12,672 bases of DNA. Source: a virus. Under the pieces are notes generated by a model. That model had not been told where the DNA came from. It was given only the letters and a program-made list of their open reading frames with translations, and did not search any database. The position numbers and the translations under genes are program-made. Location: the UHGV virus genome UHGV-1790737; one strand, written 5' to 3'. This document shows positions 2,293 through 12,672 of the stretch, in pieces (the stretch's first letter is position 1; every line of letters begins with the position of its first letter).

Positions 2293-2327
2293 CCCCAGTA
2301 GCACTGGCTGCTGGGGTGCGTTTTATT
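2293..2327 (+). terminator. Putative intrinsic terminator downstream of trkG
   Basis: Ten-bp stem ccccagtagc (2293-2302) pairing with gctgctgggg (2307-2316), including one G-U pair, around loop actg, then tgcg and ttttatt (2321-2327). The U-tract is offset 4 nt from the stem, so strength is uncertain. Confidence 0.4.
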
Positions 2328-2343
2328 CATAAAGCAAGGATGT

Positions 2344-3135
2344 ATGAGCGAGAAATTAAAGATAGTCTATCGCCCATTACAAGAATTGTCACCGTATGCG
2401 CACAACGCCAGGACGCACAGCCCTGAGCAGGTGGCACAACTGGTAGAAAGTATTAAGCAATTCGGCTGGACTAATCCGGTGCTGATTGACGAAAAGGGCG
2501 AAATTATTGCGGGTCACGGTCGTGTTATGGCGGCTGAAATGCTCAAAATGGATTCTGTTCCGGTCATTGTTCTGTCTGGCCTGACGGATGAGCAGAAAAA
2601 GGCGTACCGCCTGGCAGATAATCGCCTGCCGATGAATGCTGGCTGGGATGAAGATCTGTTGCGGATGGAGCTGTCGGACCTAATCAATGCTGATTTTGAT
2701 GTCTCCCTGACAGGCTTCATCCCGACAGAAATTGATGAACTGTTGACGGATGTTTTGCCCGGTACAGGAAATGAGGAGGAGCCGTATACGACGAAAATTG
2801 ATACGCCTGTTTATGAGCCGTCGGGCGGTAAACCGGATATCAGTGAACTGTACGACGATACGAAAACGCAGGAGCTGATCAGCCGGATACGTTCGGCTTC
2901 CCTTGAGCCTGATATTGAGAAATTCCTCCTGTGTGCGGCAGAACGTCACACGGTGTTTAATTTCAGCAGAATTGCGGACTATTACGCTCACGCCCCCGCT
3001 GAAATTCAGTGTTTTTTCGAGGAGTCGGCGCTGGTGATCATTGATTATCAGCAGGCTATTGAAAATGGATTTGTCCGGATGACGCAGCGCATGGTGGAGA
3101 TCATGCATGGTGGTGAGGAGGAGGAATATGCGTGA
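2344..3135 (+). CDS. ParB/Srx N-terminal domain protein (ParB-like nuclease/NTP-binding fold) with uncharacterised acidic C-terminal domain, 263 aa
   Basis: N-terminal ~90 aa has the ParB/sulfiredoxin signature, including GHGR (nt 2512-2523) followed by VMAA, i.e. a GxxRxxA-type motif. C-terminal ~170 aa is acidic with no family I recognise. SD-like agga sits 4 nt upstream of the ATG. By position after trkG this corresponds to Rac ynaK, which I recall as a short truncated gene in K-12. Confidence 0.85.
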   Translation: MSEKLKIVYRPLQELSPYAHNARTHSPEQVAQLVESIKQFGWTNPVLIDEKGEIIAGHGRVMAAEMLKMDSVPVIVLSGLTDEQKKAYRLADNRLPMNAGWDEDLLRMELSDLINADFDVSLTGFIPTEIDELLTDVLPGTGNEEEPYTTKIDTPVYEPSGGKPDISELYDDTKTQELISRIRSASLEPDIEKFLLCAAERHTVFNFSRIADYYAHAPAEIQCFFEESALVIIDYQQAIENGFVRMTQRMVEIMHGGEEEEYA

Positions 3136-4060
3136 TGATTTTTGCGCCTTTATTCTGACTCACGGGCGACCGGACAAAGTTCTGACTTACCGGACGTTGC
3201 GTCGTGCTGGCTATACCGGGAAAATTTTTATCGTTGTTGATGATGAAGATAAGACACGGCATCAGTACATGGCTGAATTTGGTGAACAGGTGCTGGTGTT
3301 TTCCAAAACCGATATCGCCAGTCGTTTTGACGAAGCCGATAATTTCTGTGACCGCCGCTCAATTTTTTACGCCCGTAATGCCTGTTTCGACCTGGCAAAA
3401 CTGGTCGGGTGTAAATACTTCATTCAGCTCGATGATGATTATCACGAGTTCCAGTTTCGGGTGGATCGCAACTATGACCAGGCCTATTTCCCGATAAGGA
3501 AACTGGATGCGATCCTTTCTGAAATGCTGGCGTACTACGAATCAATACCTGCTCTTTCCATCGCTATGTCGCAGGGCGGGGATTTTCTTGGTGACAATGG
3601 CGGCCATGCTTCGTGGGTGAAACGCAAGGCAATGAACAGCTTTATCTGTTCGGTTGATCGACCGTTCTCATTCATGGGGCGCATTAACGAGGATGTGAAT
3701 ACGTACACGAATCTCGGTCGCTGTGGTGAATTGTTTATGACGATCGGTGCTGTCCAGTTAGGGCAGAAACAGACGCAGAAAAACAGCGGCGGAATGACCG
3801 AGCTGTATCTGGATTCCGGAACCTACGTTAAAAGTTTTTACTCCGTCATGTATGCGCCGTCGTGCGTAAAAATTTCACTGATGGGTGCCAGCCATAAACG
3901 CATTCACCATCAGGTCACCTGGAACAACGCTGCAGTAAAAATCCTTCACGAAAAATACAGGAAGAAGACACCCTGCATATCAATGGGGGTGACAAATGAT
4001 TCCGTATTCGAAAGTCGAGTCTCTGGCAGCGTGCCGGATGACTGCACAACAAATCGCTGA
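3128..4060 (+). CDS. Uncharacterised 310-aa protein translationally coupled to the ParB-like gene (ydaY-like position)
   Basis: ATG at 3128 is preceded by a strong SD (ggagg, 3117-3121, 6-nt spacing) and overlaps the upstream TGA (3133-3135) by 8 nt. Protein begins MRDDFCAFILTHGRPD and carries acidic clusters (VVDDED, QLDDDYHEF). I cannot assign a family from sequence alone. The ORF-track start at 3107 is rejected in favour of the SD-supported ATG. Confidence 0.8.
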   Translation: MRDDFCAFILTHGRPDKVLTYRTLRRAGYTGKIFIVVDDEDKTRHQYMAEFGEQVLVFSKTDIASRFDEADNFCDRRSIFYARNACFDLAKLVGCKYFIQLDDDYHEFQFRVDRNYDQAYFPIRKLDAILSEMLAYYESIPALSIAMSQGGDFLGDNGGHASWVKRKAMNSFICSVDRPFSFMGRINEDVNTYTNLGRCGELFMTIGAVQLGQKQTQKNSGGMTELYLDSGTYVKSFYSVMYAPSCVKISLMGASHKRIHHQVTWNNAAVKILHEKYRKKTPCISMGVTNDSVFESRVSGSVPDDCTTNR

Positions 4061-4247
4061 CGTTCTGGATGTTGATCTGAACCGACTGAAAGAAAATCGG
4101 GAAGCAATGACAGATTTTTATGCGGCCATCCGTAAGGGCAGAGCGAAAGGTGAAGCCGAGTTACGAGCGGCATTGTTTAAGCTTGCCAGAAAAGGGGATG
4201 CCTTTGCTCTGCGCGAACTACTCAGGGTGGATAAAAATCAGGACTAA
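3996..4247 (+). CDS. Small helix-turn-helix DNA-binding protein (83 aa) immediately upstream of the small terminase
   Basis: ATG at 3996 follows a G-rich SD (gggggtga, 3985-3992). HTH-like segment SLAACRMTAQQIADVLDVD. Its stop at 4245-4247 is 3 nt before the terS ATG. Overlaps the 3' end of the preceding gene by 65 nt; the alternative ATG at 4038 has no SD. Confidence 0.6.
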   Translation: MIPYSKVESLAACRMTAQQIADVLDVDLNRLKENREAMTDFYAAIRKGRAKGEAELRAALFKLARKGDAFALRELLRVDKNQD

Positions 4248-4250
4248 CTG

Positions 4251-5345
4251 ATGAGCAGACCGGACTGGGGGGCGTTGCAGCAGGAGTATATTGCTGAATA
4301 CACCCGCTCCGGTATATCTCCGGTGGCATGGTGTGAAGCAAGGGGACTGAATTACGCAACAGCCCGTCGTTACATCAAAAAAACTCCGAAAAATGCGCAG
4401 ACAGAAATGCGCAAAACTGCGCAAAAAAGTGCGCAGAAAAAATCTGCGCAGACTGCACAAAAGCGGAACGAAAAATCTCAGGAAAAAAAGCCAGTATTCG
4501 ATGCGGGCCTGAATGAGGGCGACGCGGAGGAATTTTCGTTCTGTCCCGATGAATTCGGCATTTCTGACCAGCAGGCTAAGTTTGCGATGCTTGTTGCTCA
4601 GGGTAAAAAGCCGACAGAGGCGTACCGACTAGCCGGTTATGAGGGGCAAGGTGCGACAGCTAACAGCAACGCCAGTCGTATGCTTAGAAATGCCAGGGTT
4701 TATCGTGCTATCAGCTACTTCCGCAATCAGTACCAGAAACGCTATACCGCAGACCTGGATTTACTGGTGAGCCAGTTGATGGTCATTGTCCAGGCCGACC
4801 CCAATCAGTTGGCACAATTTCGCCGTGTTAACTGCCGTTATTGCTGGGGCGAGAATCATCTCTACCAGTGGCGTGATATTGCAGAATTCGATAAGGCTGC
4901 GGCACAGGCCTCCAGAGATGGTAAACCCGAGCCGGAATATGGAGGCCTCGGCTTTGTTGATAACGCCATACCCAATCCGGATTGCCCGAAGTGCTGCGGT
5001 GAGGGAACGGGACAGCTTTATATGGCTGATACCACACTGCTTGATGGGGATGCGCGGCAATTATATGCAGGGTCAAAGCTCGGAAAATACGGTGTTGAGA
5101 TCCTGCTGGAGGATAAGGCTGCCGCCCGGCGTGAATTGTTGCGTTTGCTTTCTGCTGGCGGGGCATTATGTGCAGATAAGCGGCTACAGGAACTGGAAAT
5201 TGAACGGCGCAGAATAGAAAACCAGAAGCTGCACAAAGAGATCGAAACGGTGGAAGATAATGAACATCCCCAGCCTGTGGCGATCAATATTAATGTGGTT
5301 GATGCCAGAGTAAGGAGTGATGAAGATGATCTCTCCGACGCTTAA
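4251..5345 (+). CDS. Terminase small subunit (Terminase_2-like core) with N-terminal HTH, Lys/Gln-rich linker, Cys-cluster region and C-terminal coiled coil, 364 aa
   Basis: Central segment QQAKFAMLVAQGKKPTEAYRLAGYEG...ATANSNASRMLRNARVYRAISYF resembles the small-terminase (Terminase_2) signature as I recall it. It sits directly upstream of, and overlaps, the large terminase. Extra features: CRYC...CPKCC cysteine cluster and coiled-coil tail. Confidence 0.8.
   Translation: MSRPDWGALQQEYIAEYTRSGISPVAWCEARGLNYATARRYIKKTPKNAQTEMRKTAQKSAQKKSAQTAQKRNEKSQEKKPVFDAGLNEGDAEEFSFCPDEFGISDQQAKFAMLVAQGKKPTEAYRLAGYEGQGATANSNASRMLRNARVYRAISYFRNQYQKRYTADLDLLVSQLMVIVQADPNQLAQFRRVNCRYCWGENHLYQWRDIAEFDKAAAQASRDGKPEPEYGGLGFVDNAIPNPDCPKCCGEGTGQLYMADTTLLDGDARQLYAGSKLGKYGVEILLEDKAAARRELLRLLSAGGALCADKRLQELEIERRRIENQKLHKEIETVEDNEHPQPVAININVVDARVRSDEDDLSDA
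4394..4458. repeat. Array of five palindromic TGCGCA hexamers (plus a TGCACA variant) inside the 5' part of terS
   Basis: TGCGCA at 4394, 4408, 4418, 4430 and 4445, and TGCACA at 4453, embedded in A-rich spacers. The array encodes the AQK/AQT-rich linker of TerS. Confidence 0.6.
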
Positions 5346-6627
5346 TGTGCCTCAGGCGCGATTTCTTTCAATGCCCCATAAATTTAAAGCCTATATTGCT
5401 GGTTTTGGCTCGGGCAAAACATGGGTTGGGTGTGGCGGCATATGCAAGGGGATTTGGGAGCATCCAGGTATAAATCAGGGATATTTTGCGCCAACGTATC
5501 CCCAAATTCGCGATATTTTTTACCCTACAGTGGAAGAAGTTGCTGCTGACTGGGGATTGAACGTAAAAATTAATGAGGGAAATAAAGAGGTTCACTTTTA
5601 TTACGGACGCCAGTATCGGGGAACCACTGTCTGCAGATCGATGGAGAAGCCACAAACGATCGTCGGTTTCAAAATTGGTAATGCGTTGGTGGATGAACTG
5701 GACATTTTGCCGAAGGAAAAAGCCAGAACGGCGTGGCGCAAGATAATTGCACGTATGCGTTATAAGATTGATGGACTTCGCAACGGTATTGACGTTACAA
5801 CCACGCCGGAAGGATTCAAATTTGTCTACGAGCAGTTTGTTAAAGCCGTGCGTGAAAAAACAGAGCTGGCCTCACTGTATGGTCTGGTGCAGGCATCTAC
5901 TTTCGATAATGAAAAGAACCTGCCAGCAGATTACATTCCTTCGCTTCTTGAATCATACCCTCCAGAGCTGATTAAAGCCTATCTTCGAGGACAGTTTACT
6001 AACCTGACAAGTGGTACTGTTTACCATCAGTTTGACCGGAAACTGAATAATTGCGAAGAAGTGGAGCAGCCAGGGGAGCCGATTTATATTGGGATGGATT
6101 TTAACGTTGGAAAGATGGCGGGAATCGTCCATGTGCTGCGTTTGGGGCTTCCATGTGCGGTAACTGAAATCATCAATGCCTACGATACGCCGGATATGAT
6201 CCGCCTCATTAAAGAACGCTTCTGGCTGTATGATGGGAATGATTACCGGAAAGTGAGGGAAATTTATATTTATCCAGATGCTTCCGGGGACTCCAGAAAA
6301 TCAAGTAACGCAAGTACGACGGATATAGCCCAGCTTAAGCAGGCTGGTTTTAACGTTGTGGTGAACAGCTCGAACCCGCCAGTAAAAGATCGCGTTAACT
6401 CAATGAATGCAATGTTCTGCAATGCCAATGGTGAGCGTCGCTATAAAGTTAATGTGAAGCGTTGCCCGTTATATGCCGAATCTCTGGAGCAACAGGTCTG
6501 GGATGAGAAGGGGGAGCCTGATAAAAAATCTGGCAATGATCACCCGAATGATGCCGGAGGTTATTTCATCGTTAAGCAATTCCCTATTGTCAAACCGACC
6601 GGAAGAGTCACATCACTTCGGATTTAA
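5326..6627 (+). CDS. Terminase large subunit (ATPase/nuclease), about 433 aa
   Basis: Walker A-like motif AGFGSGKT near the N-terminus, acidic motifs in the C-terminal half consistent with a nuclease domain, and position after terS. SD aggag (5313-5317) favours ATG 5326 over the in-frame GTG 5317 and ATG 5320. Overlaps the terS stop. Confidence 0.88.
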   Translation: MISPTLNVPQARFLSMPHKFKAYIAGFGSGKTWVGCGGICKGIWEHPGINQGYFAPTYPQIRDIFYPTVEEVAADWGLNVKINEGNKEVHFYYGRQYRGTTVCRSMEKPQTIVGFKIGNALVDELDILPKEKARTAWRKIIARMRYKIDGLRNGIDVTTTPEGFKFVYEQFVKAVREKTELASLYGLVQASTFDNEKNLPADYIPSLLESYPPELIKAYLRGQFTNLTSGTVYHQFDRKLNNCEEVEQPGEPIYIGMDFNVGKMAGIVHVLRLGLPCAVTEIINAYDTPDMIRLIKERFWLYDGNDYRKVREIYIYPDASGDSRKSSNASTTDIAQLKQAGFNVVVNSSNPPVKDRVNSMNAMFCNANGERRYKVNVKRCPLYAESLEQQVWDEKGEPDKKSGNDHPNDAGGYFIVKQFPIVKPTGRVTSLRI

Positions 6628-6629
6628 TT

Positions 6630-8036
6630 ATGGCTGATATATCAACACCCAACCTCGACTATAACGATATGCTGGAGGCGTGGGATATTAACGACGCACT
6701 GATGGGCGGTACGCTTGAAATGCGCAGGCAGGGGGAAAATTATCTCCCAAAATGGCCTAACGAAGATGAAGACGCTTATAAAAAACGCCTGTCTGTGGCT
6801 ACGCTACTTCCTGTGTATGAAGAAAGCATCAAGCAAAATATTGGGCGCATATTTGCAGAGCCGACAGTATTGAGTGAGGAAACGCCGGCAAAAATCAGGG
6901 AATATGCAGAAAATATCGACATGGAGGGGAGCCGACTGGATGTGTGGGCGCAGCAATTTTTCAGCCTCGCATTTCAGTATGGTGTGGCACATGCGCTGGT
7001 GGACTATCCACGAACGGATATGAAAGAGATTCGGACAAAAGCCGATGAAAACGCGACCGGTGGTCGTCCGTACGTTACGATGCTGAATCCACGCCAGGTT
7101 ATTGGATGGAAATCGAAAGTTGAAAAAGGGAAAGTTGTTCTCACTGATTTGCGTATAAAAGAGGTCATCATTATTGATGGTGATGATTTCGGGCAGAAGA
7201 AGGTGGAGCAGATCCGCCATATTATGCCCCGTCGAGTTGAAATTTATCGACGTAGCGAAGGCACTAATGGCGAATCTGTCTGGACGCTTCATGAGTCATG
7301 GAATACCAGCCGTGATGATATTCCTCTGGTAACACTGTACACGAAGAAAACAGGATTTATGCGTGGTACACCGCCATTGCTTAATCTTGGCTTGCTGAAT
7401 ATCAAGCACTGGCAAAGCCAGAGCGAGCAGGACAATATTCTTCATGTTGCCCGCGTTCCATTGCTGGTGGCCTACGGGCTGGACAGGAATGAAGAACTGA
7501 CGGTTGGTGCATCCACCGCTACGATTTTTGAGGACAGAACAAAAAATGGCCTCGAATATGTTGAACATAGTGGCGCAGCGATAGAATCTGGCGAAACATC
7601 ACTTGAGAAGCTGGAAAATCAGATGCGTCATGCCGGCGCTAAACTTCTGCGTGCTGAAAATACATCCACCAAATCTGTTGATCAGACTAATGAAGAGCGA
7701 ATGCAGGAAAACTCGCCGCTTTATACAATGGCGAACTCCCTCGAAGATGCCCTCGATAATATTCTCCAGATAATGGCGGAATGGATCGGAGAGAGTTGCG
7801 GTGGCAATGTGGATGTGCGCACTGAACTGGATGTATCTGCCCAGGTGTTTGACTCATCCTCCGCGCTGGCTGTTCAGTCATTGCGTCAGGGCGGTGATAT
7901 ACGTCAGATTGATGCGGTTCGGGTGTTGCAGGCGTTGAAATTTATCGATCAGGATTCCCGTCCAGAGGAAGTGATCGATGAATTAAAAAATCAGAGTGTA
8001 ATGCTGATGGAAATCAATGATGCAAACCGTGAATGA
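6630..8036 (+). CDS. Portal protein (DUF4055-type), 468 aa
   Basis: Begins 3 nt after the terL stop. Size and position (terL, then this, then MuF-like) are canonical for a portal. Sequence resembles the DUF4055 portal class as I recall it; not verified by search. Confidence 0.7.
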   Translation: MADISTPNLDYNDMLEAWDINDALMGGTLEMRRQGENYLPKWPNEDEDAYKKRLSVATLLPVYEESIKQNIGRIFAEPTVLSEETPAKIREYAENIDMEGSRLDVWAQQFFSLAFQYGVAHALVDYPRTDMKEIRTKADENATGGRPYVTMLNPRQVIGWKSKVEKGKVVLTDLRIKEVIIIDGDDFGQKKVEQIRHIMPRRVEIYRRSEGTNGESVWTLHESWNTSRDDIPLVTLYTKKTGFMRGTPPLLNLGLLNIKHWQSQSEQDNILHVARVPLLVAYGLDRNEELTVGASTATIFEDRTKNGLEYVEHSGAAIESGETSLEKLENQMRHAGAKLLRAENTSTKSVDQTNEERMQENSPLYTMANSLEDALDNILQIMAEWIGESCGGNVDVRTELDVSAQVFDSSSALAVQSLRQGGDIRQIDAVRVLQALKFIDQDSRPEEVIDELKNQSVMLMEINDANRE

Positions 8037-9132
8037 ACGGCTGCGTGATGAATCAATTGCTCATGCAGTCTGGATATCCCGCTATAGCACTGGCGTGGCT
8101 GCCAGAATGGTGAAAATACTGAATGACAGCGATGCGGAACTTACTGCTCGCCTGCTGATAGCACTGGACAGCCTCGATCCAGGTAGTTTTACCGTTAAGC
8201 GCCTGGAGTCACTTCTGGCGAGCGTCAGAGAGGTTAACCGCACTGCTATTAACAGCATGTTTACCAGTCTCTCCGGAGAGCTGAACGAGCTGGCAATTTA
8301 TGAGGCTGGTTATCAGTTAAGTCTGTTTGATTCTATGCTACCTGATTTTGTTGCTGATGTTCACCCTCTGGTTGGTATCTCTCCTGATGCACTTTATGCC
8401 GCTGCAATGGCGCGACCATTCCAGGGACGACTGCTCAGTGAGTGGGCCTCAGATCTTGAGGCGGATCGGCTCAGACGCATAACAAATACAGTGCGTCAGG
8501 GTTTTTTGCTGGGGGATACCAATGAGCAGATCGCAAGAAAAATTCGGGGACATGTCAGTAAGGGATTTCAGGATGGTGCATTGCAGATGAGCCGGGCTAA
8601 TGCGGCCAGCATTGCAAAAACAGCGGTTGGACATCTTGCTGCTACTGCCCGTGAGAGTTTTGCCAGCGCGAATAATGATTTGATTAAGGGTAAGCAATGG
8701 TTATCAACGCTTGATAATCGTACTACGCCACAATGTCGAATCAGGGATCGCCTCAAATATACGCTGAATAATAAACCTGTAGGTCACAGCGTGCCTTATT
8801 TGCAGGGGCCGGGAAAAATTCATTTCTGCTGCCGCTCAACGGAAACGTTCATTCTGAAATCAGCGAAGGAACTGGGTATTGATGTTCGCGATATTTCCCC
8901 GGCTGAGCGGGCCAGCATGGATGGCGTGATGGCCGGAGATACAACCTACAGGGAATGGTTTTTGCGTCAGCCTTACACCAGACAAAAACAGATTGTGGGG
9001 GAAACCCGAGCAAAGCTGATTCGGGATGGTGGTATGTCGCCAGATGAATTTTACACCGATAAAGGCGAATGGCTGACGCTGAAGCAGCTCCGTGAGCGTG
9101 ATGCACAGGTATTCAGAAAAGCAGGGATTTAA
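8017..9132 (+). CDS. Head morphogenesis protein (Mu F / SPP1 gp7-like minor capsid protein), 371 aa
   Basis: Overlaps the portal stop by 20 nt. Position between portal and scaffold, and length, are typical of MuF-like head morphogenesis proteins. Family assignment is from gene order plus general sequence character. Confidence 0.7.
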   Translation: MMQTVNERLRDESIAHAVWISRYSTGVAARMVKILNDSDAELTARLLIALDSLDPGSFTVKRLESLLASVREVNRTAINSMFTSLSGELNELAIYEAGYQLSLFDSMLPDFVADVHPLVGISPDALYAAAMARPFQGRLLSEWASDLEADRLRRITNTVRQGFLLGDTNEQIARKIRGHVSKGFQDGALQMSRANAASIAKTAVGHLAATARESFASANNDLIKGKQWLSTLDNRTTPQCRIRDRLKYTLNNKPVGHSVPYLQGPGKIHFCCRSTETFILKSAKELGIDVRDISPAERASMDGVMAGDTTYREWFLRQPYTRQKQIVGETRAKLIRDGGMSPDEFYTDKGEWLTLKQLRERDAQVFRKAGI

Positions 9133-9152: not shown

Positions 9153-9178
9153 GGCTACCTTCGGGTGGCCTTTTTTAT
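9153..9178 (+). terminator. Intrinsic terminator between the head morphogenesis and scaffold genes
   Basis: Stem ggctacc (9153-9159), loop ttcg, stem ggtggcc (9164-9170, one G-U pair), then tttttt (9171-9176) and att. Confidence 0.7.
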
Positions 9179-9236
9179 TGCTGCGATCCGGATGGTGAGC
9201 AGCGTAACTGTCGGAAGACTTAAACCAGGTACTAAT

Positions 9237-10001
9237 ATGAAACTGAAAACGGTCGAGATTAACGGAAAACAATACGCAGAAATTGATACTGCTGGCCTGC
9301 CAGTTTATGTGCACGACGATGGTAAAGAAATTGGCTTCGATGCACCGCTGGCGACAAAAAAAATTACAGAGCTTAATGGCGAGGCAAAAAATCATCGCCT
9401 GGCTAAAGAAGCTGCAGAGGAAAAACTGGCTAAGTTTGCCGCTATCGAAGACCCGAAGAAGGCGATCGAGGCACTGGAAATGCTGTCAAAAATCGACCAG
9501 AAAAAGCTGCTCGATGCGGGACAGGTTGACCAGGTTAAGGCAGAAATTACGAAAAATTTTCAGCAGCAATTAGATGAAGAAAAGCAACGCTCTCAGATGC
9601 TGGAGAAGCAGCTTTACGATTCTATGATTGGCGGTAGTTTTGCGGGTTCAAAATATATTGCCGATAAAATTGCGATCCCGGCAGATTTATTACAAGCCCG
9701 CTTCGGGCAGGCATTCAAAGTGGAAGAAGGGAGGATCGTTGCTTATGACGCTTCCGGCAACAAAATTTATTCCCGCGCGAAGCCTGGCGAACTGGCGCAG
9801 TTTGATGAGGCGCTGGAGTTCCTTGTCGAAAATTACCCTCAGAAAGACTACATCCTGAAAGCCAGTGGCAACAATGGCGGCGGCTCCCGTCCGACACAGC
9901 ATGATATTGGTCAGAAAACGATGAAACGCTCTGCTTTTGATGCACTGGATGTTGCAGGTAAGCAAAACGCATTGAAAGACGGTATCACAATCGTTGATTA
10001 A
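9237..10001 (+). CDS. Putative scaffolding protein, 254 aa
   Basis: Lies between the MuF-like and major capsid genes. Charged, coiled-coil-rich middle (EKLAKFAAIEDPKKAIEALEMLSKIDQKKLLDAG...QQQLDEEKQRSQMLEKQLYD). ATG 9237 is chosen because the ORF-track start at 9165 lies inside the terminator hairpin; the SD is weak, so the start is uncertain. Confidence 0.55.
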   Translation: MKLKTVEINGKQYAEIDTAGLPVYVHDDGKEIGFDAPLATKKITELNGEAKNHRLAKEAAEEKLAKFAAIEDPKKAIEALEMLSKIDQKKLLDAGQVDQVKAEITKNFQQQLDEEKQRSQMLEKQLYDSMIGGSFAGSKYIADKIAIPADLLQARFGQAFKVEEGRIVAYDASGNKIYSRAKPGELAQFDEALEFLVENYPQKDYILKASGNNGGGSRPTQHDIGQKTMKRSAFDALDVAGKQNALKDGITIVD

Positions 10002-10099
10002 CACATTTGTCAGCTTCCGGATGGGAGCTGGTGTCAGGGCTGGATAGCTCATTACTCCATCTATTCACAATTACGCAAATTTTTAAGGAATATTTAATT

Positions 10100-11239
10100 A
10101 TGGCTGGAAATACCCTGACCGGGTTGATCCCGACTATTTATACCGCCCTGGATGTTGTATCCCGTGAGCAGGTAGGTTTTATCCCTGCGGTAGCAAAAAA
10201 CGCAAAAGCTGACGCCGCAGCAAAAGATCAGACGGTAACCGCGCCAGTTGCGCCTGAGGCGAAAACCGAAGATATCGTACCGGGGCCGTCAGCTCCGAAT
10301 ACCGGTGATCAAAATATTGGCACTGTTGATGTAAAAATTACTAAATCCAAAATGGCACCGGTTAAATGGAATGGTGAAGAACAACTGGCTCTTGGCCCTT
10401 CAGGGACTTACAACACCATTCTGGCTGATCAGTTCAAGCAGGCTTTTCGCGCCCTTGCAAACGAGGTTGAGGCTGATCTTGGTGCGTTGTATTTCGGTGC
10501 TTCCCGCGCCGTGGGAACCGCAGGGACAACGCCGTTTGGTGTTAAAGATGATCTTTCTGATGCTGCTCTGGCTCGTCAGGTTCTGGAGGATAACGGCGCA
10601 CCGACAACCGATCTGCAGATGGTGCTTGGCTCCACTGCCATTGCTAATTTGCGCGGAAAACAGTCTGTATTGTTTAAAGTGAATGAATCCGGCACTGAAC
10701 AGCTACTGCGTGAGGGCGTGTTGGGGCGTCTGGAGGGATTCAATATTCACAGTTCGGCAGGTGTGAAACGAGCGCCAAAGGTTGCTGCAACTGGTTATCT
10801 CGTGAATGGAGAGAAAAAAGAAGGCGATGTTCTTATTTCCATTGATACTGGTTCGGGGAGTATTTCTGCAGGTCAGATTGTTACGTTCGCTGGTGATCCG
10901 AATCAGTATGTTGTGGCAGCAGCGACCAGCAATCTGATTACTCTTGCAGCGCCCGGACTGCGTCAGGATCTGGCCGATGATACTGCCATCACAGTTGTTG
11001 GGGCCTTTACTGCAAATATGGCGTTTGATCGCAACGCGTTTCTGCTGGCATCCCGTACTCCGGCAATGCCGGAAGGTGGCGATAATGCTGATGATGTAAT
11101 GAATGTTACGGACCCGATTTCAGGGATTACGTTCCAGATTGCACTGTATCGTCAGTATCGCCAGGTGCGCTATGAAGTTGGACTGGCATGGGGTGTTTCA
11201 TCAGTGAAGCCGGCACATGGTTGTCTGATTCTTGGTTAA
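10100..11239 (+). CDS. Major capsid (coat) protein, 379 aa
   Basis: Follows the scaffold gene and is followed by a strong terminator. ATG 10100 is preceded by SD-like aagga (10085-10089). Size and Gly/Ala/Thr-rich composition fit a coat protein. The ORF-track extension to 10007 is rejected. Confidence 0.8.
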   Translation: MAGNTLTGLIPTIYTALDVVSREQVGFIPAVAKNAKADAAAKDQTVTAPVAPEAKTEDIVPGPSAPNTGDQNIGTVDVKITKSKMAPVKWNGEEQLALGPSGTYNTILADQFKQAFRALANEVEADLGALYFGASRAVGTAGTTPFGVKDDLSDAALARQVLEDNGAPTTDLQMVLGSTAIANLRGKQSVLFKVNESGTEQLLREGVLGRLEGFNIHSSAGVKRAPKVAATGYLVNGEKKEGDVLISIDTGSGSISAGQIVTFAGDPNQYVVAAATSNLITLAAPGLRQDLADDTAITVVGAFTANMAFDRNAFLLASRTPAMPEGGDNADDVMNVTDPISGITFQIALYRQYRQVRYEVGLAWGVSSVKPAHGCLILG

Positions 11240-11461: not shown

Positions 11462-11809
11462 ATGATCACTTACGTGACCTGTGATGACGTTGATAATGCG
11501 TTTGGGAACGCCTGGACGAGTGAGAACGCTAAAAATAAAGCTGTTTTAATGGCTAATGCCTGGCTTAATGGCTTCAACCTGAAAATTAACCCATCCCGTA
11601 TTCCGGAAGAGGTAAAACTTGCGGGAGCATATGCAGCCAGAATTGCCTCATTCGGTAAGTTGTTTCAGCAGAAAAATGATTCTGGCGTTGTTATCAGTAA
11701 AGCCGTGTCGGCTGACGGGGTCAGTGTATCGAAATCATTTTCTGAGTTGCCAGCAAACAGCACTGCATTGGATTTGCCCCTATATTTCCAGACACCTGTT
11801 ATCACTTAA
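11462..11809 (+). pseudogene. Phage structural gene (head-completion/connector candidate by position) truncated by IS2; the last ~13 codons are read from IS2 sequence
   Basis: ORF MITYVTCDDVDNAFGNAWTSENAKNKAVLMANAWLNGF... runs in frame across the IS2 boundary at 11768/11769, so the native reading frame is interrupted after ~102 codons. The functional call is positional only. Confidence 0.55.
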
Positions 11810-12672
11810 CCCATTACTGGCTTGCTGCCGTAGATATTCCCGTGGCGAGCGATAACCCAGTGCACTATGCGGATGCCATTCGTTATAATGCTCGAACGCC
11901 TCTGCAAGGTTCTTTGCTGCCGTTAACCCGTCTGGTTTGGGCATGACACTGATGTAGTCACGCTTTATCGTTTTCACGAAGCTCTCTGCTATGCCGTTAC
12001 TCTCCGGACTCCGCACCGCCGTGCTCTTCGGTTCAAGCCCCAACATCCGGGCAAACTGCCGTGTTTCATTAGCCCGGTAGCATGAACCATTATCCGTCAG
12101 CCACTCTACTGGAGACGCCGGAAGCTCGTTGCCGAAGCGGCGTTCCACCGCTCCCAGCATGACGTCCTGTACTGTTTCACTGTTGAAGCCGCCCGTAGTG
12201 ACCGCCCAGTGCAGTGCCTCACGGTCACAGCAGTCCAGCGCGAACGTGACTCGCAGTTTTTCTCCGTTATCACAGCGGAACTCGAACCCGTCAGAGCACC
12301 ATCGCTGATTACTTTCTTTCACAGCCACTCTGCCTGTATGTGCCCGTTTCGATGGCGGTACAGCAGGTTTTCGCTCAAGCAACAGCGCATTCTGGCGCAT
12401 GATCCGGTAAACACGTTTGGCATTGATCGCAGGCATACCATCAAGTTCTGCCTGTCTGCGAAGCAGCGCCCATACCCGACGATAACCATACGTGGGCAGC
12501 TCTCCGATAACATGGTGTATACGGAGAAGCACATCCGTATCATCAGTGTGACGACTGCGGCGGCCATCCATCCAGTCATCGGTTCGTCTGAGAATGACGT
12601 GCAACTGCGCACGCGACACCCGGAGACAACGGCTGACTAAGCTTACTCCCCATCCCCGGGCAATAAGGGCGC
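11769..12672 (-). mobile_element. IS2 (partial; continues beyond the right window edge), inverted relative to the left copy
   Basis: Terminus tggatttgcccctatatttccagaca at 11769 onward, and the encoded InsD transposase. The terminal 53 nt are about 92% identical (4 mismatches) to the reverse complement of 1-53. Confidence 0.9.
11780..12672 (-). CDS. insD: IS2 transposase OrfB (InsD), 5'-partial (N-terminus beyond window)
   Basis: Minus-strand translation ...[70 protein letters not shown]...[36 protein letters not shown] matches IS2 InsD as I recall it (DDE integrase-type). The frame remains open to the window edge at 12672. Confidence 0.9.

Follow-up and report, generated by a model that had tools for sequence, protein, structure and literature searches.

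What do the two adjoining genes at positions 2344-4060 of the virus genome UHGV-1790737 encode, and on what do their products act? The window, a stretch of 12,672 nucleotides (nt) of this genome, is the late part of a Rac-like prophage, and one E. coli chromosome matches it at 99.9% identity. The original prediction, made from the letters alone, described the two genes as a translationally coupled pair in the accessory slot of a lambdoid phage and as a candidate uncharacterised system. It placed a ParB/Srx-like fold in the 263-amino acid (aa) product of the first gene and found no assignable motif in the 310-aa product of the second. Here, the second product is identified as a glycosyltransferase of the TAGT (TET-associated glycosyltransferase) family and the first as its constant partner. 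Our leading reading, held tentatively and at a little short of an even chance, is that the pair forms a late-expressed, ParB-assisted nucleic-acid glycosyltransferase of two subunits whose acceptor is left open. No enzyme that would supply the acceptor base usual for this family is detected in the prophage. The DNA-directed two-component function first suggested for the locus is the most plausible reading, given the TAGT family, the co-conservation of the two genes and their DNA-handling contexts.

The 310-aa protein (3128..4060, + strand) is confidently assigned by homology as an enzyme of the TAGT family with the glycosyltransferase A (GT-A) fold. It matches the Pfam TAGT model (PF20691) at E 3e-35 and 122.5 bits (cut-off 27.5), over residues 8-222 (nt 3149-3793) and profile positions 4-205 of 205, and it matches phrog_842 at E 7e-104. 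R14, D102-D104 and N187-E188-D189 are invariant among 12 homologues. The active-site pattern of phage GT-A DNA glycosyltransferases and of the trypanosome base-J glucosyltransferase (JGT) is R...DDD...ED(Y/F) (bioRxiv 10.1101/2023.12.21.572611), and the 310-aa protein follows it except for a V instead of Y/F at the third position. Both acidic clusters quoted earlier, VVDDED and QLDDDYHEF, are present. The DDD of QLDDDYHEF corresponds to the DDD of this pattern, so D102-D103-D104, encoded by GAT GAT GAT at 3431..3439 (+ strand), is the DxD metal/nucleotide-sugar motif of the GT-A fold. The failure to assign a motif to this protein is thus corrected by the Pfam and PHROG matches, the GT-A fold and the DxD motif. 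The label "uncharacterised" holds for its function and not for its family, which the databases already name: RefSeq and UniRef entries read "GREB1-related protein" or TAGT domain protein, and PGAP uses "GREB1-related". A packaging or structural role for the protein is rejected.

In the AlphaFold2 model of the 310-aa protein, the GT-A core (residues 1-150 and 170-215) is mostly confident and residues 216-310 are low-confidence. The top Foldseek matches in the PDB are GT-A enzymes (6p61, K4CP, SpsA and glycogenin); nucleotidyltransferases, which share the GT-A fold, are also among the matches. Beyond the Pfam match, residues 223-288 are kept in close homologues and are basic (isoelectric point, pI, 9.6). 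The last 22 residues are a tail specific to the E. coli lineage, encoded in the overlap with a downstream 83-aa open reading frame (ORF); homologues are approximately 288 aa long. No NCBIfam or PADLOC model matches the glycosyltransferase, and in these collections it shows no sign of being a catalogued defence or anti-defence gene.

The TAGT family was reportedly first defined by Iyer et al. in 2013, who are said, in the papers that quote that work, to have proposed that ParB proteins direct modification enzymes. Its characterised members include the T2/T6 beta-glucosyl-HMC-alpha-glucosyltransferase, which adds a second glucose to glucosylated 5-hydroxymethylcytosine (hmC), and phage enzymes that glycosylate 5-hydroxymethylcytosine generated by TET enzymes (PMC13216743; bioRxiv 10.1101/2023.12.21.572611; PMC7968844). 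They also include JGT, which acts on 5-hydroxymethyluracil (hmU) in DNA, and human GREB1, which adds O-GlcNAc to protein (PMC7968844; bioRxiv 10.1101/2023.12.21.572611). The substrates of the characterised phage and kinetoplastid members are hydroxymethylpyrimidines in DNA, or glucose attached to them (PMC13216743; PMC7968844; bioRxiv 10.1101/2023.12.21.572611).

The 263-aa partner is encoded by the full-length ynaK gene (2344..3135, + strand) and is acidic, with a pI of 4.5 and a net charge of -25. It matches phrog_620 over its full length at E 1e-90. In the AlphaFold2 model, the protein divides into an N-domain (residues 1-136; predicted local distance difference test score, pLDDT, 72-90), a disordered segment (residues 137-169; pLDDT below 50) and a C-domain (residues 170-263). 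The linker and the C-domain are the low-confidence part of this single-chain model. The ParB/Srx fold proposed for the N-domain, which with its helical extension occupies 2344..2751 (+ strand), is borne out by several searches. Pfam ParB_N (PF02195) matches residues 23-90 at 28.9 bits (cut-off 26.3), many PHROG ParB families match as well, and phmmer finds Spo0J (1vz0) at E 2e-5. Foldseek matches of the N-domain model are Noc, ParB, PadC, KorB, Srx and SerK. ParB/Srx folds include true enzymes (Srx and SerK) and bind ATP, GTP or CTP (PMC12704722).

The GHGRVMAA motif quoted earlier is present at residues 57-64 (nt 2512-2535). Its first four residues form Box II (G57-H58-G59-R60, nt 2512-2523), which is invariant among close homologues, as is a Box III-like D92-N93. 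Of 45 diverse full-length ParB-fused partners, 37 retain the Box II arginine and 43 the Box III asparagine. In the eight without this arginine (loci L010, L011, L020, L030, L032, L038, L058 and L061), it is replaced, in GNGV, GNKT or VNKT motifs. Several of these eight come from Bacteroidales genomes, and the C-domain and glycosyltransferase are retained there. Judged by these replacements, nucleoside triphosphate (NTP) binding may have been lost in lineages that lack the Box II arginine.

The nearest relatives of the N-domain are the N-termini of phage DNA methyltransferases, not partition proteins. The phrog_498 DNA methyltransferase matches residues 3-141 at E 1e-50 (profile positions 31-171 of 633), and the PADLOC MTase_II N-terminus matches at E 2.5e-38 (profile positions 13-151 of 436). 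A search with the N-domain returns 528 phage records, most of them methyltransferase N-termini. RefSeq names the protein "ParB/Srx family N-terminal domain-containing protein", and phage records name it "chromosome (plasmid) partitioning protein". A partition-type ParB is rejected: TIGR00180 scores 38.4 bits (cut-off 58.45) over the N-domain only, and no helix-turn-helix is found in Pfam or in the model. The annotations of the related prophage, of Lactobacillus phage c5 and of phi jlb1 include no ParA; parS was not searched for. A ParB-methyltransferase fusion is also rejected, as only the N-terminal ~140 residues match and there is no methyltransferase Pfam match. An IbrA/IbrB-type pair with a PP-loop PAPS-reductase is likewise rejected, as TAGT is the only Pfam match of the second gene product.

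The C-domain of the partner ("ParB_C", residues ~145-255, 2776..3108, + strand) is conserved and acidic, and is followed by an acidic tail, GGEEEEYA. The statement that this acidic domain could not be placed stands. No relatives are found in Pfam or NCBIfam, and a profile search against PDB sequences yields chance-level matches only, the best at E 0.004 to a SusD-like protein. The domain family is large, with 1188 cluster representatives at E<=1e-3 and approximately 1200 clusters at 50% identity. In a profile search that matches 3162 proteins, almost all of the 120 with the best scores are free-standing, ~130-140 aa long and without a Pfam match. Within the predicted disordered linker (residues 137-169) lies the motif Y148-[T/S]-x-K-x-x-x-P-x-Y157, which in this protein reads Y148-T-T-K-I-D-T-P-V-Y157-E-P-S (2785..2823, + strand). 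In cross-phylum alignments, Y148 and Y157 are invariant and P155 is nearly so; Y148 is followed by T or S in the aligned sequences listed. This conservation makes the motif a candidate docking peptide or acceptor site.

Partner and enzyme occur together almost without exception. A survey seeded with the glycosyltransferase, with one genome per species, yields 62 loci from Proteobacteria, Bacteroidota, Firmicutes, Planctomycetota, Actinobacteria and others, 60 of them with upstream DNA. Glycosyltransferase identity is 39-58% outside the Enterobacterales. The partner C-domain is encoded just upstream of TAGT in 59 of the 60 loci, and the sole exception is a locus with a mere glycosyltransferase fragment. 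Conversely, TAGT lies directly downstream of the partner domain in all 78 viral-contig loci that have enough downstream DNA. A lack of co-conservation, named in the original prediction as grounds for abandoning the idea of a pair, is not what the gene neighbourhoods show. The C-domain is the constant partner of this TAGT subfamily. The median pI is 4.7 for the partner and 8.9 for the enzyme. Given the reciprocal co-occurrence, the opposite charges and the low single-chain confidence of the parts that would face each other, partner and enzyme are read as an obligate heterocomplex.

The two genes are real and overlap as first described. The first runs from 2344 to 3135 and the second from an ATG at 3128 to 4060, so that the second begins 8 nt inside the first, with the overlap ATGCGTGA at 3128-3135 and the stop codon of the first gene at 3133-3135. 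An in-frame ATG at 3107, upstream of 3128, would make the second product 317 aa long. The ATG at 3128 is also used in deposited phage records, and homologues of the second product begin MRDDFCAF. A Shine-Dalgarno-like sequence, GAGGAGGAGGAA, read at 3115..3126 (+ strand), precedes this ATG and, together with the start/stop overlap, indicates translational coupling as judged from the sequence. Overlap or abutment is also seen in homologous pairs of other phages.

Upstream of the pair, between it and trkG, a GC-rich, terminator-like hairpin with a T-run occupies 2293..2316 (+ strand). It has a 10-bp stem with seven GC pairs and lies 28 nt ahead of the ParB-like gene. No sigma-70-like site is found on the + strand within 2207-2343. 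The hairpin probably terminates the trkG moron transcript. Because no promoter is found ahead of the pair and a terminator-like hairpin follows trkG, the pair is probably expressed from the late, antiterminated transcript, which would read through the hairpin. This fits trkG as a moron with a terminator of its own, through which the late transcript must pass.

Homologues of each protein number in the thousands. Of 5426 complete E. coli genomes, 889 contain at least 80% of the 1717-nt pair, and 10 deposited phage records carry it at >=99% identity. The idea that the K-12 Rac genes ynaK and ydaY are truncated remnants of the pair holds in part. The K-12 ynaK retains 264 nt from the 5' end of the ParB gene; ydaY, which belongs to the tail region in intact relatives, was joined to it by a deletion and is not a remnant of the second gene. 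In the K-12 MG1655 Rac prophage (L146 2501-3104), ynaK is deletion-fused to ydaY and tape-measure remnants, and nothing is left of the glycosyltransferase, terminase and head region. No functional study of ynaK was found in the literature search.

The pair is found in two main settings. In the first, in temperate phages, the ParB-fused partner and TAGT lie ahead of terminases of at least five unrelated families. For example, the pair forms the first two genes after cos in Lactobacillus phage c5, and TerS and TerL directly follow it in phi jlb1. It is also present, at 43% identity, in the haloarchaeal Haloarcula hispanica tailed virus 2. Its conservation at 40-58% across bacterial phyla and at 43% in this virus argues for a universal substrate. 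In the second setting, in large phages, a stand-alone partner domain and one or two TAGT genes come right after DNA polymerase A. The replication modules near the pair there encode helicase, primase, sliding clamp, clamp loader and RecA, so that DNA polymerase A flanks it on one side and the sliding clamp, RecA or the clamp loader on the other; dUTPase and MazG genes are also neighbours. The description of the pair as lambdoid moron cargo is not upheld. It precedes unrelated terminases in phages of Proteobacteria, Firmicutes, Bacteroidota and Actinobacteria and in the haloarchaeal virus, and it also lies inside replication modules, so a lambdoid-specific moron is rejected.

A few loci encode a UDP-glucose dehydrogenase, an epimerase, a nucleotidyltransferase or a radical SAM enzyme beside the pair, and second TAGT copies adjoin it in a few loci. 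In two Firmicutes loci (L063 6860-7816 and L054 6840-7796), a 319-aa radical SAM protein is encoded immediately downstream of the glycosyltransferase gene or genes and ahead of the terminase genes. A 123-kilobase (kb) gut metagenome contig (L229, 1-14631) encodes serine hydroxymethyltransferase (SHMT), a protein with a weak Thy1 (ThyX-type) match, DNA polymerase A and a free-standing partner domain. It also encodes a CofD-family protein, an IspD/NTP_transf_3 nucleotidyltransferase and two TAGT proteins. From its gene content, this cluster looks like an elaborate undescribed DNA hypermodification pathway.

Within the window, the pair heads the packaging operon at 3996..6627, whose assignments come from phrog_309, phrog_51, Terminase_2 and Terminase_6N/6C. 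Directly behind the pair comes the 83-aa TerS-like ORF (3996-4247, + strand; phrog_309), which shares 65 nt with the 3' end of the glycosyltransferase gene and aligns with this small-terminase family over an internal stretch only (phrog_309 positions 145-218 of 319). TerS (4251-5345, + strand) and TerL (5317-6627, + strand) follow, with Pfam matches to Terminase_2 and Terminase_6N/6C respectively. TerS is unusually long (364 aa), and its Terminase_2 match spans residues 122-316 and only 111 profile positions. Because this match is long in residues and short in profile positions, TerS holds extra internal sequence. Its N-terminus bears a weak likeness to the IS66 TnpA-type helix-turn-helix. Upstream of the pair lie Rz, with Rz1 embedded in it (135-611), and trkG (731-2206), the moron. 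Downstream of the operon, the head genes encode the portal (6630-8036), a Mu-F-like protein (8017-9132), a scaffold-like protein (9165-10001) and a P22-type coat protein (10007-11239). A deposited phage record names the Mu-F-like protein "NAD+--asparagine ADP-ribosyltransferase"; its only Pfam match is Phage_Mu_F. An insertion sequence (IS) transposase gene (11783-12619, - strand; HTH_21, rve and rve_3) comes directly after the head genes. The ORF at 11462-11809 encodes 115 aa, fewer than the 131 aa of the corresponding ORF of the intact phage record (L001 29119-29514). The prophage copy of the window is probably disrupted, by the IS insertion and with this shortened ORF.

How the two proteins might work together can be outlined from these data. 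By homology, the 310-aa GT-A enzyme would be the catalytic subunit and would use a nucleoside diphosphate sugar through its DDD motif. The 263-aa partner would be a non-catalytic activator or adaptor, with its C-domain and linker motif docking onto the basic C-terminal extension of the enzyme. The ParB/Srx N-domain may be a nucleotide-gated module that enables the enzyme to act on double-stranded DNA, as in the ParB-dependent thymine dioxygenases. Made from the antiterminated late operon, in which its genes immediately precede those for terminase, the complex would mark progeny DNA shortly before packaging. Its presumed purpose would be evasion of host nucleases. A functional likeness, and only that, is with Mom of phage Mu, a late-expressed enzyme that modifies phage DNA after replication, just before packaging, and so evades restriction. 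Mom has an acetyltransferase-like fold and carries out carbamoylmethylation of adenine; its fold and chemistry are unrelated to those of the present enzyme, and it has no ParB partner.

The closest precedent for the partner comes from phage ParB-like proteins without a DNA-binding domain that activate thymine dioxygenases on double-stranded DNA, even with NTP-motif residues mutated (PMC13229309). As in the 5mYOX176/ParB176 system (O'Toole et al., PNAS 2026, PMC13229309), a DNA-modifying enzyme would be encoded beside a ParB-like protein. ParB176 consists of a nucleotide-binding domain, short helices, a disordered linker and a C-terminal domain, without a DNA-binding domain (PMC13229309), and the predicted model of the 263-aa partner shows the layout given in that published description. 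Both families have NTP-motif residues that are conserved yet apparently dispensable (PMC13229309; Box II arginine in 37 of 45 partners), and both are often encoded near terminase (PMC13229309). Unlike 5mYOX176, the enzyme here is a glycosyltransferase and not an iron- and 2-oxoglutarate-dependent dioxygenase, and no adjacent TET_JBP gene is detected. Unlike that of ParB176, the C-domain here is also found free-standing.

The other relatives share one half of the system. Fusions of the ParB N-domain to DNA methyltransferases (phrog_498; PADLOC MTase_II; PF02195 with PF01555) are found in hundreds of phages, with N-terminal ~140 residues homologous to the partner at 30-57% identity and a similar genome position near packaging genes. 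The methyltransferase domain is absent here; a novel adaptor domain follows the ParB module instead, and the enzyme with which it would work is encoded separately. The T2/T6 beta-glucosyl-HMC-alpha-glucosyltransferase and other phage TAGT enzymes resemble the 310-aa protein in Pfam family, GT-A fold, the R...DDD...ED pattern, viral origin and expression linked to DNA metabolism. The TAGT copies of T4-like Aeromonas phages are only 22-24% identical to the 310-aa subfamily, which in contrast to T2/T6-type enzymes has the conserved basic C-terminal segment and the constant ParB_C partner. In the Rac-like prophage, no primary alpha- or beta-glucosyltransferase and no hmC or hmU pathway is detected among the families listed, and such a glucosyltransferase is likewise not detected in c5 and phi jlb1 or, among the 25 best families, in the 204 nearest neighbours. 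JGT and GREB1 are distant members of the same GT-A clade; both are eukaryotic and without a ParB partner, and JGT is about 9% identical to phage GT-A enzymes (bioRxiv 10.1101/2023.12.21.572611).

Several points weigh against a ParB-assisted nucleic-acid glycosyltransferase. An O-glycosyltransferase finds no hydroxyl on canonical DNA, and the characterised relatives that act on DNA all require a pyrimidine with a hydroxymethyl group, or a sugar that such a base already carries. In the whole Rac-like prophage, neither a TET/JBP enzyme nor a hydroxymethylase of the thymidylate-synthase type is detected, and no acceptor-making enzyme is detected among the 204 nearest neighbours in the diverse loci, in both cases among the 25 best families listed. 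Phages c5 (31.8 kb) and phi jlb1 (38 kb), each covered as a complete genome, likewise show no TET/JBP enzyme or hydroxymethylase; neither encodes a DNA polymerase, and their hypothetical ORFs (the longest 208 aa) show no relevant Pfam match when scanned. The partner is strongly acidic and without a recognisable DNA-binding domain. NTP gating is not essential to the core reaction, since the Box II arginine is lost in 8 of 45 partners and the ParB domain is absent in many homologues. Each single-chain model has low confidence in the region that would face the other protein, and biochemical data on this subfamily were not found in the literature search. GREB1, a member of the TAGT family, glycosylates protein (PMC7968844).

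The missing hydroxyl could be accounted for in more than one way. Unlikely, in our judgement, is that the sugar is put directly on unmodified DNA (a canonical or Dam/Dcm-methylated base, the backbone or the ends) without prior hydroxymethylation; the ParB_C domain would then supply the missing acceptor-activating or base-presenting function. Canonical TAGT chemistry on a 5-hydroxymethylpyrimidine or an existing sugar, with the acceptor made by an unrecognised phage or host enzyme, appears quite improbable; the pair would then carry out an ordinary step of hypermodification. It would follow the precedent of the family (PMC13216743; bioRxiv 10.1101/2023.12.21.572611), and the Pfam TET_JBP model misses thousands of 5mYOX-like sequences (PMC13229309). 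The contig that joins the partner domain with two TAGT enzymes, SHMT, weak Thy1, CofD and nucleotidyltransferase also speaks for it. However, the gene set of the Rac-like prophage contains no such enzyme among the families listed, and c5 and phi jlb1 have neither a DNA polymerase nor a detectable hydroxymethylase. E. coli DNA is not known to contain hydroxymethylated bases. A target that is not DNA is also conceivable, and we consider it distinctly unlikely that it is a protein, most simply the partner's own Y-[T/S] linker site in a glycogenin-like or GREB1-like reaction. The product would be a glycosylated acidic protein for replication or packaging, or a DNA mimic; known DNA-mimic anti-restriction proteins are acidic, as is the partner. 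A partner that is itself the substrate would explain the co-occurrence without any modified DNA base. Y148 and Y157 are invariant in a predicted disordered segment, with T or S after Y148 in the sequences listed, but a docking peptide would show equal conservation. GREB1 is a protein O-GlcNAc transferase of this family (PMC7968844), whereas the characterised viral and kinetoplastid members act on DNA (PMC13216743; bioRxiv 10.1101/2023.12.21.572611; PMC7968844). The ParB N-domain is of the type fused to DNA methyltransferases, and the placement beside DNA polymerase or terminase, with the few loci that have a second TAGT or sugar-nucleotide genes, resembles DNA hypermodification clusters.

Two further alternatives leave polymers, or the pairing itself, aside. 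The target may be a small molecule, such as a nucleotide or a signalling molecule (e.g., to blunt a host defence signal or alter nucleotide pools), with the ParB/Srx domain as an NTP-binding regulatory or catalytic unit, which we regard as very improbable. ParB/Srx folds include the enzymes Srx and SerK and bind ATP, GTP or CTP (PMC12704722), and both enzymes are among the Foldseek matches of the N-domain. Nucleotidyltransferases share the GT-A fold and are among the matches of the 310-aa model, and dUTPase and MazG are neighbours in large phages. However, the Pfam assignment is specifically TAGT, with the glycosyltransferase DDD and ED motifs, the ParB domain is often absent or degenerate, and the enzyme has no PADLOC match. 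It is extremely improbable that the genes have two independent functions, a ParB-like packaging or partition accessory (a pac-site or terminase helper, or a nuclease) beside an unrelated glycosyltransferase cargo. ParB-like genes are common beside terminases, and the deposited records annotate the first gene as a partitioning protein, but the reciprocal co-occurrence (59 of 60 and 78 of 78) largely refutes this explanation. The translational coupling of the genes also argues against it, as does the stand-alone partner domain, which without ParB still accompanies TAGT in replication modules. The missing helix-turn-helix and the absence of an annotated ParA in the related prophage, c5 and phi jlb1 point the same way.

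The locus is made of known families in a new combination and context, for which no characterisation was found in the literature searched. It defines a large TAGT subfamily tied to a specific unannotated partner domain, which is often fused to a ParB module shared with DNA methyltransferases. In one survey, TAGT is found in 288 of 753 glycosyltransferase-encoding phages, and approximately 65% of mined glycosyltransferase contigs have no known base-modification partner; many TAGT-type enzymes are described as "solitary", with their role open (PMC13216743; bioRxiv 10.1101/2023.12.21.572611). An inducible prophage type of E. coli offers a tractable model for what these solitary enzymes do. If the target is a protein, the pair would be the bacterial-virus counterpart of GREB1. 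If the target is DNA, ParB-assisted modification would extend from oxidation and methylation to glycosylation, and the pair could expose a modification missed by ordinary sequencing and restriction analyses of temperate phages. If DNA is glycosylated directly, this would be a new DNA-modification chemistry in ordinary temperate phages of bacteria and archaea, carried by about one sixth of complete E. coli genomes.

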